Under the pieces are notes generated by a model. The model saw nothing but the letters and a program-made list of their open reading frames with translations. It was not told the DNA's origin and made no database searches. From NCBI GenBank assembly GCA_001275005.1, contig JWZX01003352.1, positions 48,587 to 68,586 on the forward strand: DNA of 20,000 nt, read 5' to 3'. Each line of letters opens with the position of its first letter. Position 1 is the stretch's first letter. The DNA comes from Chrysochromulina tobinii (Eukaryota). This document shows positions 15,021 to 19,180 of this stretch, in pieces. A program made the translations under genes and the position numbers.

Positions 15021-15888
15021 CTATCGCATCGGCTCCCAGTCGTCCGGCTCTGAGTCACTCATCTCGAAAACGCGCGTGAGCTGCGCTGTGGGCGCTGCCG
15101 GCGCCGGCGCCGCAAAATCAGCCGTGAGCAGCGCCGAGAGCGGCTTGCCCTCGACCACCATGCCAAACCAGCAGATCTGGCCCAGTAGCAGACCGTTCAC
15201 AGCGAGCCCAAAAGCGAACCCGGCCAGCAGCAGCGGATCCGAGCCTGCCAGCGCGATCGTGGTGAAGAGCCGCACCGAGCAGCCGGCACATGCGAGGCCC
15301 GCGGTCAGTGGCGAGTAGCCGCCGGGGCTTCTCCTCCGGAGATTCTGATAGAGCTGCGGGAGGAGGGCGCCCGTGTTCAAGAGGGTGGCCACCGTCTGGC
15401 CGAGCGCGACCACAGAGGCGGGCGCGGCGCTCATGGCGTACACGCACGCGCCGCCGTATGATGCTGCTAGAGCGAAGAACGATCGGTCCATCCGCCTCTG
15501 GTAAAATGCGACGAGTGCAAGTACCACTGCCGCCTCCACCGTGATGATGAGCGTCTCGATGTACCTGAGTCAACGGGATTGTTCTGCACTGAGAGAGTCA
15601 CGTACCTGATAGAGAGCAAGGGAAAGTGTGGAGCGCTGCAACTAAAGCCACGCACGTGGAGACGAGGTAGCCATTCGCAAAAGAATAGACGTCGGAGCAG
15701 GTATATGAGATCAATTTCAGCCACCACGTCGAGAGCGTCAGCCCAGACGCGTCGCGCTGGCGGCAGACCCTGATGGCTATTGGCGTGTACAAGAGCAGCG
15801 AACCAGCACCGACTACGTACCCAAGCCCTTGAGCAATGACGCTAGTTGCTGAAACCTCAGCGATCGTGAACTCGGGTGACGGTGGCAT
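15021..15888 (-). CDS. MPDU1: PQ-loop membrane protein, MPDU1/Lec35-like, 2 exons (15888-15656, 15564-15021; 258 aa)
   Basis: GLGYVVGAGSLLLYTPIAIRV...ASGLT, NGYLVST|YIETL, LPQLYQN.RRRSPG and G..VRLFTT. Removing intron 15565-15655 joins the two ORFs in frame (777 nt). The symbol is a family-level call. Confidence 0.82.
15565..15655 (-). other. Spliceosomal intron of the PQ-loop gene (91 nt) with an internal CAG|GTACGT
   Basis: GTGCGT...GACTCAG. Removal restores STYIE. Confidence 0.82.
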
Positions 15889-16090: not shown

Positions 16091-18384
16091 ATGGCCTCGT
16101 ACGGCGGCGGCGGCTACGGTAAGGGAAAGGGCAGCGGCAAGGGCAGCAGCGGCAAGGGCGGTGGTGGCGGCGGCCGAAGCAATCCAGGCAAGGGCGAGTA
16201 CTACAAGAATCTCTCGCGCGGCGCTGGCCGCGGCAAAGGTGGCGGCAAGGGTGGGGGCGATGACAGCGGCGACAACGGCGATAGCGATGCCGGCGGTAGC
16301 GCCGACGGCGGCTGCCGCGGTGGCGGAGCATACGAGGATGCAATGAACAAGCGGCGCCGGCACAGCACGGCGGACGAGCTGTGCCGCACGCTGTTGAGCA
16401 TCGACGGCAAGCCATACCCAGCATACCACGACATCGAGAAGACGGACTACGACATGGGCGGCCGCTTCACTCTCTGCATCGACCACGTCCAGTCGGACCC
16501 ATTTGCGCCGCCCTCGCAGTGCCACGTGCGTGTGCCGCTCGTCCTCGCCGGCTTCCCTCCGTCGACGCTCACGCCCAAGGTGCGCGAGGTGGCGCTGCGC
16601 GACTGGCTGACACGGCGTTTCGCGAGCGCCGCGCGCCGCGCCGGCGTAGACCAGCGCACGGTTGGCGAGGGCGGCTGGCACGGCCGCAAAGGCGGTGAAC
16701 TCCTCGTCGATCTACCTGGCCAGCACATCCTCGAACGCTCCAGCGTCGTCATCGACCGCCTCGAGGGGTGTATCGAGGCACGGTTCACCGTCGCACTGCC
16801 CGCTCGAGGCCGAAGTATCTGCGGCGACTGGGCAGCCAATGTGCTCACGACAACGCTGACCGAGCTTGTGCACGAAGCTCTGTATTACTCGAGTTCCGAC
16901 CCGGCGGCCCTCAAGGCGCATCTGGACTGCGCCGAGGACCAGCAGGCAGCTCGCGCGCAGCTCGCGCCACGCGGACTGGTCGCCTTCGTGGCGGATGGTG
17001 CCATGTTGGCACGTCGGTCAGGCGCCTCCGACCTGCCGTTGGACAGCTCATCCGCTGTTCCCTTTGCCTCGCCGCCCTCGCTGCGCGTGAGCCTCCCGGT
17101 GCCAAACGCGAAGCAACTCGTGGGCATGGGCGTGAGACGCGGCGTGACCCTCATCGTCGGCGGTGGGTTCCATGGCAAGTCGACGCTGCTTGAGGCGTTG
17201 CAGCTCGGTGTGTATGATAAGGTGCCCGGCGATGGGCGCGAGGGCGTTGTGACCGATGGCGCCGCTGTCAAGGTGCATGCTTGCATGCTTGCATGCAGAG
17301 AGGGTGGTGGGCGCGGTTCTTACCGATGCGCTCGTATAGCCACTGATGTGGCCATTGATTGCTGCCCTCATCAGGTTCGTGCCGAAGACGGGCGCGCGGT
17401 GACCGCCGTCGACATCTCTCCGTTCATTGACCATCTGCCATTCGGCAAACGCACCACGGCCTTTGCGACCGAAGATGCGTCCGGTTCGACCTCGCAGGCG
17501 GCAGCCATTATTGAGGCGCTCGAGACCGGTGCAAGCGCTTTGCTGATGGACGAAGATACGTCGGCGACCAACTTTCTGATGCGCGATGCGCGCATGCAGG
17601 CTCTCGTGGCGGCCGACAAGGAGCCCATCAAGCCCTTCATCACTCGCGTGAGTTCGGAGCACCTCGGATTGCGATGGATCGGCCGCTGATGGACCGTTGA
17701 TTGCTCTCCTCATCAGGTGCGCGGGCTGTGGGGATCCCTTGGCGTGTCCACAGTGCTCGTCCTTGGGGGGAGCGGCGACTACTTCGACGTGGCAGACACC
17801 GTCCTGATGCTCGACGAGTACAGGTGCGCCGACGTCATCGAGCGCGGGCTGTGGGTTCTCCCTTTGCTGATTGGCCGTTGATTGCTCTCCTCATCAGGTG
17901 CGCCGACGTCACCGAGCGTGCAAAGGAGATTGCCGCGAGCATCGCTGGTGGCCCTCCGCCGGAGGCCCTCGGCTCAGGCGCGACATTTGCGCGCCCGCCA
18001 CGGCGGTGCCTCACCGGCGCGACCGGCGTCGTATCGGGCGCCAAGCTGAGCGCGCAGCGCACGAGCCTCCGGATAGGCGACGCACCGGAGCTCGAGCTCG
18101 CCGCCCTCGAGCAGCTCGTGGAGCACTCACAGACGCGCTGTATCGGTGAGGCGCTACTGTACCTGATCAGCGGCCCAATGGACGGTGCCACGCCACTCGA
18201 CGCGCTGCTTCGGACGCTTGACGAAACCCTCGACCGGGAGGGCCTCGACGTGCTGCGCCCCGGCCGGCGCCTCGGCAATCTCGCGCGCCCACGTATGCTT
18301 GAGGTCGGCGCGTCCCTCTCCCGGCTGCGCTCGCTCAGGGTTGCAATACCATCGGCGGCCCCAGCCCAGGGACCGGTGGAATGA
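16091..18384 (+). CDS. Predicted ABC-class ATPase (COG3044/PF09818 type), 4 exons (16091-17272, 17375-17647, 17717-17823, 17898-18384; 682 aa), Gly/Lys-rich N-terminus
   Basis: IDHVQSDPFAPPS, LPARGRSI, Walker A GGGFHGKSTLL, K|VRAEDGR, DISPFI, ASGSTSQAA, Walker B LLMDEDTSATNF, GVSTVLVLGGSGDYFDVAD, EQLVE.SQTR and LARPR.LEVGA.L.RLR. Spliced length 2049 nt in frame. Confidence 0.92.
17273..17374 (+). other. Spliceosomal intron 1 of the ATPase gene (102 nt, in frame, stop-free)
   Basis: GTGCAT...TTGATTGCTGCCCTCATCAG. Removal restores conserved AVK|VRAEDGR. Confidence 0.9.
17648..17716 (+). other. Spliceosomal intron 2 of the ATPase gene (69 nt)
   Basis: GTGAGT...TTGATTGCTCTCCTCATCAG. Contains an in-frame stop. 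Removal gives PFITR|VRGLW. Confidence 0.92.
17824..17897 (+). other. Spliceosomal intron 3 of the ATPase gene (74 nt)
   Basis: GTGCGC...TTGATTGCTCTCCTCATCAG. Removal gives LDEYR|CADVTERAK and restores the frame. Confidence 0.9.
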
Positions 18385-18720: not shown

Positions 18721-18880
18721 GACGCCCGACACGACGCGACGCATCACGGCGGTGCCCGACATGACGCGACGCATCACGGCGGCGCCCGACACGACGCGAC
18801 GCATCACGGCGACGCCCGACACGACGCGACGCATCACGGCGGTGCTCGACACGACGCGACGCATCACGGTGGTGCTCGAC
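18721..18880 (+). repeat. 30-bp minisatellite, 5.3 copies
   Basis: Unit GRYGCYCGACAYGACGCGACGCATCACGGY at 18721, 18751, 18781, 18811 and 18841, partial at 18871. No spacers. Confidence 0.97.
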
Positions 18881-19180
18881 CCGCCGCGCACTGGCCTCGC
18901 CCCGTCCGTGTGCAAGGCGCTCCGGGCAGAGAGTGCCATCGACCGGATCGTGTTCGTGAGCTGCAACCCGCATGGCCACACGCTGCGCCATGACTACGTG
19001 GTCAAGGGCGGCTCGCTCGCGGCCAACACTAGGCCAACACCAAGATACTTTGCAAGCGCGGTGGGCGCTCGGGGCCCTTTATTCTCAGCCGTGCCATCCC
19101 TGTCGATCTCTTCCCCCACACGCCGCACGTCGAGCTGTGCTTGTGCTTCGAGAGGGTTGGGCCAGGCGTTGCTCGGCAGG

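Follow-up and report, generated by a model that had tools for sequence, protein, structure and literature searches.

The origin of new spliceosomal introns is an old open question, to which introners are the best-supported answer, and it is raised again by the third intron of an ABC-class ATPase gene of Chrysochromulina tobinii. The gene lies on the plus strand of the window, by which the whole 20,000-nt stretch of DNA analysed here is meant (assembly GCA_001275005.1, contig JWZX01003352.1, positions 48,587 to 68,586), and its intron 3 (17824-17897) is composed largely of patches that match the surrounding sequence. Where did these patches come from, and by which step were they joined into an intron? 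The reading favoured here, with a probability of roughly 0.55, is that intron 3 is a spliced member of a dispersed intron family, and that it would have arisen when a copy of the cassette of the neighbouring intron 2 was inserted at an exonic CAG|GT by a break-repair-type step duplicating 21 nt. An earlier reading of the letters alone, below called the sequence-only reading, had described a one-off event at this locus; the same layout, an exon copy followed by a conserved 3′ module, was however found at many unlinked sites, which points to a dispersed mobile family, the alternative that had then been named as contrary to its model.

The gene was assigned by its Pfam domains (ABC_N, P-loop and MRB1590_C), and its features are as follows.

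16091..17272, plus strand: exon 1, encoding ABC_N and P-loop (PF20446, E 2.7e-42; PF09818, E 2.4e-48), with the start codon ATG predicted at 16091.
17273..17374, plus strand: intron 1 (102 nt), an older intron of the family type, the last 20 nt of which (17355-17374) are the family tail with 2 mismatches.
17375..17647, plus strand: exon 2, covering PF09818 profile positions 124-213 and continuing directly from exon 1.
17648..17716, plus strand: intron 2 (69 nt), with degenerate decamer repeats and tail; probable donor of intron 3.
17717..17823, plus strand: exon 3, the first 16 nt of which (17717-17732) are the source of patch (b).
17824..17897, plus strand: intron 3 (74 nt, phase 2), seen as an RNA junction, in a spanning DNA contig and in three assemblies.
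17824..17844, plus strand: segment (a), upstream copy of the target-site duplication, 20/21 vs 17898-17918, which gives the GT donor.
17840..17855, plus strand: patch (b) from the start of exon 3, 15/16 vs the first 16 nt of that exon, overlapping (a) by GAGCG.
17856..17865, plus strand: filler TTCTCCCTTT between (b) and (c), with no convincing source.
17866..17897, plus strand: segment (c), the family 3′ cassette, consisting of CTGAT (branch-site-like), a spacer and TTGATTGCTCTCCTCATCAG, and bringing the predicted branch point, the pyrimidine tract and the AG.
17898..18384, plus strand: exon 4, encoding MRB1590_C (PF21117, E 6.4e-23), with the stop codon at 18382-18384; the exon opens with the native, downstream copy of the duplication (21 nt).

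Intron 3 is real, and splicing takes it out of the RNA at 17823/17898. This junction, which the sequence-only reading had proposed to look for, was found in an X17 RNA contig (334 nt, 0 mismatches, shorter side 127 letters) that aligned at 17820/17895 and, shifted by +3, at 17823/17898, as GT..AG with 74 nt skipped and with intron 2 retained. The junction of intron 2 (17647/17717, GT..AG, 69 nt skipped) was present in RNA contigs of X14, X15 and X18, and an X18 contig begins at 17373, its unaligned end carrying the last letters of exon 1, which fits splicing at 17272/17375. In X15, the contig with intron 2 spliced out continues for another 21 nt, of which 1 is mismatched, and leaves 3 letters unaligned; because exon 4 opens with the same 21 nt, this contig fits the spliced exon 3-exon 4 form. 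The splice evidence, being RNA contigs and not reads, gives junctions and not levels. Over 17836-17990, contigs were missing from X14, X18 and X19, and the cover of X16 was limited to 17958-18222; nothing was concluded from these gaps.

The protein is in agreement with the removal. The length of intron 3 is not divisible by three, and translation through it meets a stop; the spliced product ...LDEYR|CADVTERAKE aligns without gaps to the homologues P0003 (LDEYK|AADVTARAKE) and P0007 (LDEYK|TSDATAKAKQ), the ORFs (open reading frames) of which are uninterrupted there. The exon 4 peptide CADVTER corresponds to xxDVTxR in homologues that lack an intron at this site. Since the exon 3 peptide VRGLWGSLGVS... 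is conserved in P0003 and P0007, the exon copy of the sequence shared with patch (b) is the original one.

An assembly artefact, by which the 74 nt would have been inserted wrongly through repeat collapse or a mis-join, has a negligible probability. The region does hold repeats common to other loci, and the tails are partly matched by short DNA contigs from elsewhere in the family (X13 records 2 and 3), but all sampled words of the stretch were present in 13 DNA runs of a mixed culture, and 17400-18300 is covered without a single difference by one X13 DNA contig (4418 nt), so that the possibility of such an artefact raised by the sequence-only reading has been checked. The locus is furthermore identical in three assemblies (L031, L043, L076), proteins called in other assemblies read through intron 3, and the RNA misses exactly the GT..AG stretch.

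The composition of intron 3 was largely as first described. Segment (a) was confirmed at 20/21, and with the preceding CAG it reaches 23/24 (17821-17844 vs 17895-17918), the sole mismatch being 17838 T vs 17912 C. Patch (b) has an exact core, 17842-17855 equal to 17719-17732 (14/14), and counted from the first base of exon 3 the match is 15/16 (17840-17855 vs 17717-17732, GA for GT); its exact copying of the exon 3 start stands, while the loose continuation to TCCCTT that had also been claimed is weak and was not counted. The 30/32 match of segment (c) to the end of intron 2 (17866-17897 vs 17685-17716) was likewise recovered, with mismatches at 17872 and 17874, and so was the microhomology between (a) and (b), an overlap of GCG or GAGCG such as a templated junction would give. 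All templates of the patches lie within 181 nt, those of (b) and (c) being 123 and 181 nt upstream. Among 500 dinucleotide shuffles of 17200-18000 (801 nt), 3 contained an exact direct repeat of at least 14 nt; the longest one observed in the region itself has 29 nt. The 20-nt tail was found in three copies in the 20-kb window at no more than 3 mismatches, 0.01 being expected. The third copy, missed by the sequence-only reading, is the 3′ end of intron 1, so that all three introns of the ATPase gene share the tail. No further copy was found in the window, a predicted intron of the PQ-loop gene included, which speaks against a general splice signal.

Some candidates for further patches did not hold. 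No template was found for the filler 17856-17865, the 9-mer at 17059 and the 10-mer at 17538 being within chance; the latter, CTTTGCTGAT in exon 2, had been considered as a fourth patch (d) and was rejected, as 6 of its bases overlap (c) and the match is within chance. Remnants of a duplication around intron 1 (GTTCTTACCGA vs GTTCGTGCCGA, 9/11) and around intron 2 did not exceed control scores. Separately, GCATGCTT occurs three times in the 5′ part of intron 1 (17275-17298), and the 10-mer GCTGATGGAC is present both at 17542-17551 (exon 2, LLMDE, Walker B region) and at 17685-17694, the start of the intron-2 cassette, maybe by chance.

The evidence that extends beyond the window came from metagenome contigs of cultures and lakes, which were scanned with the 18-base tail pattern TTGATTGCTNNCCTCATCAG. 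The scan gave 109 matches at 88 loci, in 52 distinct contexts. About a dozen of these contexts were unrelated low-GC or bacterial-looking chance matches; the remaining ones were GC-rich, and many came from culture assemblies of the same kind and from lakes. At about two dozen distinct, GC-rich, eukaryote-like and unlinked sites the same tail was accompanied by upstream CTGATGA repeats, the tail being preceded by one to many copies of the decamer CCTCTGATGA, and several of these sites were in assemblies of one and the same culture. The cassette can be described as one or more CTGATGA-type repeats, which are branch-site-like, a short spacer and TTGATTGCTnnCCTCATCAG, and its last base is that of the 3′ splice site. 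The flanks of the fetched loci held additional copies, the tails of which deviate a little, and the X13 DNA run also contains other family copies as loose ends. A scan of viral contigs for the tail gave no match.

The other part of the layout is the exon copy. A duplication of the downstream exon at the intron start was present in 20 of the 47 contexts with enough flank, counted at a score of at least 12, over 12-60 nt and in a placement giving an intron of 60-90 nt; the offset control reached this score only within tandem arrays. With tails of up to 5 substitutions admitted, 133 copies were reduced to 43 contexts, and the duplication was present in 19/43 vs 1/42 of the controls. Its length is variable, 12-42 nt, and its first bases are GT or GC, with examples of 31 nt with 3 mismatches (L001), 25 nt exact (L011) and 30 nt exact within an intron of only 60 nt (L080). 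The three bases before the upstream copy mostly differ from the CAG of the cassette, which places the boundary exactly at the donor. As the intron opens with the exon copy, which itself begins with GT or GC, excision of the copy together with the cassette restores the original message, and at L001, L007, L011 and L013 this excision extended the ORF from 187-196 to 325-378 codons; the test does not apply simply at array loci. Compared with these copies, segment (a) of intron 3 reads as the family footprint and segment (c) as the conserved module of the family.

Family introns in which GC forms the first two bases of the exon copy were seen at L021, L033/L048, L010:889 and L006:765, and as several family introns start in this manner, the organism seems to tolerate introns of the GC-AG type.

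A purely local patchwork, in which the tail would be a convergence under branch-point and 3′ splice-site constraint and the 21-nt repeat a private duplication, is very improbable in the light of these copies. Patch (b) is indeed private to the window locus, and the tail holds functional-looking signals (CTGAT, pyrimidine tract, CAG). Convergence would however have to produce 18-20 identical bases at all those unlinked sites, each with upstream CTGATGA decamers, many of the sites have a long exon duplication of their own, and the rest of the window, with another predicted intron, is free of the tail; the explanation is largely refuted.

In most copies with a duplication, the cassette sets in with the first base of a CTGATGA unit, as if the element had a defined end. 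The canonical ends CTGATGA and TCATCAG are an exact 7-nt inverted pair, which pairs in the minimum free energy folds of L001, L011, L080 and L032, and the folds of canonical copies were not more stable than those of shuffles (z -1.07 to +0.85). Intron 3 retains, within 17868-17897, only CTGAT of this pair. The contrast drawn by the sequence-only reading to introners with terminal inverted repeats was in consequence only partly right: canonical copies of the family do have the pair CTGATGA...TCATCAG. Introns 3 and 2 did not fold better than shuffles (z 1.36 and 0.30), and the fold of intron 1 (z -2.45, 5/200) is unexplained. CUGAUGA is also the core box of hammerhead ribozymes; neither a GAAA box nor an Rfam match was present, and an Rfam scan of 17200-18000 returned only a sub-threshold chance hit to WLE3 (17.2 bits vs a gathering threshold of 50, E 0.81).

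Within the family, the closest relative of segment (c) is its neighbour. Among 45 distinct contexts (intron 3 included), the best match was intron 2 with 30/32, the next best reaching 26/32, of which 18 matching positions are fixed by the search pattern. The earlier claim that intron 3 borrowed its splice signal from intron 2 is thus supported as to the nearest relative, but the piece is the 3′ module of a dispersed family. The protein P0001 (ADG for ADW) implies a strain variant of intron 3, GCTGATGGG, that would be 31/32 to intron 2. Clustering is common in the family: 10 of 31 locus groups contain two to four family introns within ~1.2 kb, and cassettes of the same locus were more alike (0.720 vs 0.667), a difference reached in 61/5000 label permutations and, when the window locus was left out, in 223/5000. 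This greater likeness within than between genes makes local copying likely.

Tandem arrays of duplication plus cassette are also common (L055, 601-872, four 84-nt units; L008, 889-1205; L030/L078; L033/L048), with unit lengths of 84, 74 and 75 nt. At an orthologous locus the number of units differs at the DNA level, being two in L014, L017 and L006 and three in L019 and L075. As a separate observation, L003:600-725 holds head-to-tail 21-nt units resembling bare tails (CTTGATTGGCCCCCTCATCAG and variants), apparently a satellite of the 3′ module of the cassette alone.

The favoured reading would then run as follows. A copy of the cassette, for intron 3 probably that of intron 2, would enter a break with a long and variable stagger, or the target would be re-copied in an equivalent manner, and the duplication of 12-42 nt would result from fill-in of the stagger or from the re-copying. 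The cassette would supply the branch point. The direct repeats so formed may then permit gain and loss of units, by slippage or by recombination between unequal partners, and the tandem arrays would find their explanation in this.

Patch (b) also bears on the source of intron 3. It copies the sequence directly 3′ of intron 2, beginning at the position of the first base of exon 3, and its 11-mer CGGGCTGTGGG is confined, within the 88 fetched loci, to the window locus and its three copies there. In other strains it appears as ...ERGLWVLPLL in all proteins that read through this part (P0032-P0034), and its presence there dates it to the origin of intron 3. It may be a fossil of the donor flank, in which case a unit of exon-3 start plus cassette, from a former array at the intron-2 site, would have been transferred to a place 107 nt downstream and have since disappeared from the donor site; or it may be templated filler, made from nearby DNA during the sealing of the 5′ junction. 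Both readings fit an origin of intron 3 beside intron 2, as far as the sequence can indicate.

Several points weigh against this account. The copies were retrieved by an exact 18-nt pattern, so that the conservation of the tail is partly by construction. The duplication is missing from 23/43 contexts, which are presumed, as an assumption, to be older copies. Splicing was checked in RNA for the introns of the window, the support for the other copies being ORF restoration at four loci. In the other duplication-bearing copies there was no filler like patch (b), only GGTTGA in L007, L013 and L015, and a copy of exon 3 is missing today from the 5′ end of intron 2, so that the donor-flank fossil needs an array unit that was lost. 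No enzyme or autonomous element was found, no search of a whole genome having been aimed at one, and no transposase is known to give duplications varying from 12 to 42 nt. Finally, L007 (NYN/YacP-like) and L013, which are unrelated genes, have in common only a 112-nt block of 6 nt of upstream exon, an 86-nt intron with the GGTTGA filler and 19 nt of downstream exon (VRVATSD vs VRVLTSG); their downstream exons start 16/20 alike. This sharing hints at homology-guided targeting, which plain insertion would not predict.

The shared block of L007 and L013, an intron with short similar exon flanks in unrelated genes, would also fit a family that has no free element and spreads when replication or the repair of a break switches templates, a generalisation of the model of the sequence-only reading. 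A strand would leave the exon, copy the 3′ part of a family intron through CAG|GT, return upstream and re-copy 12-42 nt; for intron 3, three switches would be needed, from the start of exon 4 to the start of exon 3, to the tail of intron 2 and back. The long duplications of variable length agree with such copy-choice, as do the overlap of (a) and (b) by GCG or GAGCG, CAGGTGCGC common to the intron-2 acceptor and the target, the position of every template within 181 nt, and the local relatedness of cassettes. Entry into the cassette mostly at the start of a CTGATGA unit argues, on the other hand, for a defined end and not for arbitrary microhomology, the second half of (b) matches exon 3 poorly, 6-10 nt (17856-17865) lack a template, and the layout of (a) and (c) recurs at unlinked sites. 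Cassette subtype was not significantly associated with the bases that open the downstream exon (Mantel r 0.046, 1092/5000 permutations), nor was it without the window introns and L013 (r 0.094, 471/5000), the rows of this test being the 28 of 37 contexts with a downstream exon starting GT or GC. Spread by copy-choice alone is rather unlikely; switching of the Pol theta/MMBIR type (microhomology-mediated break-induced replication) is still a live candidate for the mechanism.

In every copy the 3′ end of the cassette coincides exactly with the 3′ splice site, which could also be produced if intron RNA were reverse-transcribed into a nicked target, in a target-primed, SINE-like manner (SINE, short interspersed nuclear element). 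A precise 3′ end at the AG, variable duplications and 5′ ends, and sense-only copies would be predicted, and a full-length copy would bear the old 5′ duplication of its donor, which would be patch (b). Both the length of the duplication and the number of decamer repeats do vary, and patch (b) begins at the base that matches the first base of exon 3. Against this, no reverse transcriptase partner, A-tail or other mark of a retroelement was seen, the sequence ending in CAG; the RNA of present-day intron 2 would lack (b), and a nested old duplication occurs in none of the other duplication-bearing copies. An RNA-mediated origin is, in our judgement, improbable.

A more far-reaching reading can be put forward only tentatively: it is possible, though doubtful, that the family introns multiply without a transposase, any resident copy giving rise to another intron at an exonic AG|GT in its vicinity, by break repair or copy-choice in which tens of bases of the target are copied again. 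Patch (b) would then be a pedigree mark left by the flank of the parent, and gain, array formation and precise loss would be reversible at the DNA level. If so, patch (b) would be a direct tie between a young spliceosomal intron and the parent from which it came within one gene.

The age of intron 3 can be estimated from proteins of other strains, in which the intron is read through. Its tail stands in frame just before exon 4 in P0001, P0017, P0020 and P0023 (97.5-99.4% identity), and also in P0026 (92.5%) and P0027 (90.1%), so that the sequence-only reading, which had seen the intron "caught in the act", is not supported in this respect, the tail being found in strains down to 90% protein identity. 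T at 17838, which gives Ile in the read-through, is common to all three ORFs covering (a), and the two repeat copies of intron 3 differ by 1 change in 21. On the other side, the ORFs of P0003 and P0031 (both 76%) and of P0007 (51%) are uninterrupted over the sites of introns 2 and 3, their contigs being DNA or possibly transcript. Intron 3 was probably gained in this lineage, as first proposed, largely by copying of local sequence, and these proteins suggest that it is lineage-specific and fairly young, but not newborn.

P0002 and P0016 (97% identity) pass from exon 3 to exon 4 without intron 3, and both start at the same internal GTG, as is expected if intron 2 remains upstream. They were considered as empty-site alleles at the DNA level and rejected as proof of these, since the X17 RNA contig, which retains intron 2 but not intron 3, has the same form and the two may be derived from transcripts. 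P0002 has Ile where the exon copy has a conserved Thr, which fits conversion or deletion between the repeat copies or a plain variant. In P0007, the ORF start MLPCCPRA|ISVDHLPFGKR looks like read-through of an intron ~10 codons downstream of the intron 1 site; as this resembles a different intron, relatives may have gained introns elsewhere in the same gene.

Described introner families have short, fixed target duplications, typical of transposases. Introns can also be gained by tandem duplication of an exonic AGGT-containing segment, in which AG|GT is doubled, the copies frame the intron and the whole intron is duplicated exon; in intron 3 only 21/74 nt (17824-17844) are duplicated exon, and the acceptor comes from the cassette.

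The duplications of known introner families measure 3-9 bp (Gozashti et al. 2022, PMC9860276), those of the Symbiodinium and Polarella glacialis introner-like elements (classes 4, 5) have a fixed 4 nt (bioRxiv 10.1101/2020.10.14.339549), and the direct repeats of Amoebophrya introners have 3-5 nt (PMC7789003). The Symbiodinium/Polarella elements are similar to the present family in that related introns occur at many unlinked sites with the mRNA restored on removal (Symbiodinium family 1, PMC9860276), in that the element has its own 3′ splice site and takes the donor from the duplication (10.1101/2020.10.14.339549), and in their inverted repeats ending at the 3′ splice site, which have only 7 nt here. 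They differ from it by their fixed 4 nt, when the duplication of the present family is 12-42 nt and variable, and the present family also differs by a cassette of down to ~30 nt, a variable decamer array, tandem units and within-gene clusters. In Chrysochromulina sp., an alga of the haptophyte type, introner family 5 likewise gives short introns, with a 4-bp duplication, but it carries a 5′ splice site and co-opts the 3′ site (PMC9860276), the opposite of the arrangement found here. The introners of Micromonas and Aureococcus are, like the present family, mobile, intron-generating, non-autonomous short elements of algae; they have constant-length direct repeats and terminal inverted repeats, and neither variable long duplications nor gene-internal arrays are described for them in the parts of these papers that were available (PMC9860276, PMC7789003). 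The neointrons of Daphnia pulex at staggered double-strand breaks have repeats of 4-12 bp and mostly unique inserts of unknown source (PMC4202315); an exon direct repeat is present here too, but it is longer and the insert is a recurrent cassette. The sources of introners listed in a 2025 survey are DNA, retro, Crypton and Helitron elements together with unknown mechanisms (PMC12130899).

In a literature search that included the motif strings, no account was found that combines variable 12-42-nt duplications, a ~30-nt cassette and gene-internal arrays, although supplementary tables may hold related elements. The family of intron 3 is a form of introner-like intron gain in which the target duplications are long and of variable length. 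A cassette of only ~30-60 nt brings the predicted branch site, the pyrimidine tract and the AG, the long exon copy gives the donor, and this architecture predicts local spread within genes, growth of tandem arrays and precise loss via recombination between the repeats. Introns 2 and 3 are likely a parent and daughter pair in one gene with an internal mark of descent, which would be rare material for the chemistry of insertion.

The eukaryotic DNA of the window is rich in GC, its ORFs are long and its introns few, and it also contains PARP, EXS, ornithine decarboxylase, EF-hand and PQ-loop genes. The PQ-loop gene seems to be interrupted, at 15565-15606 on the minus strand, by a tiny predicted intron, 37 nt if GTGACT...CTCAG is taken, which lacks the family tail and is flanked by the 7-nt direct repeat CAGGTAC. 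Downstream of the ATPase gene, an ORF contains a 30-nt tandem repeat (18724-18888, 5.5 copies, 92% matches), which encodes a repeated ARHDATHHGG-like peptide and adjoins a fragmentary match to tRNA (U5) methyltransferase.

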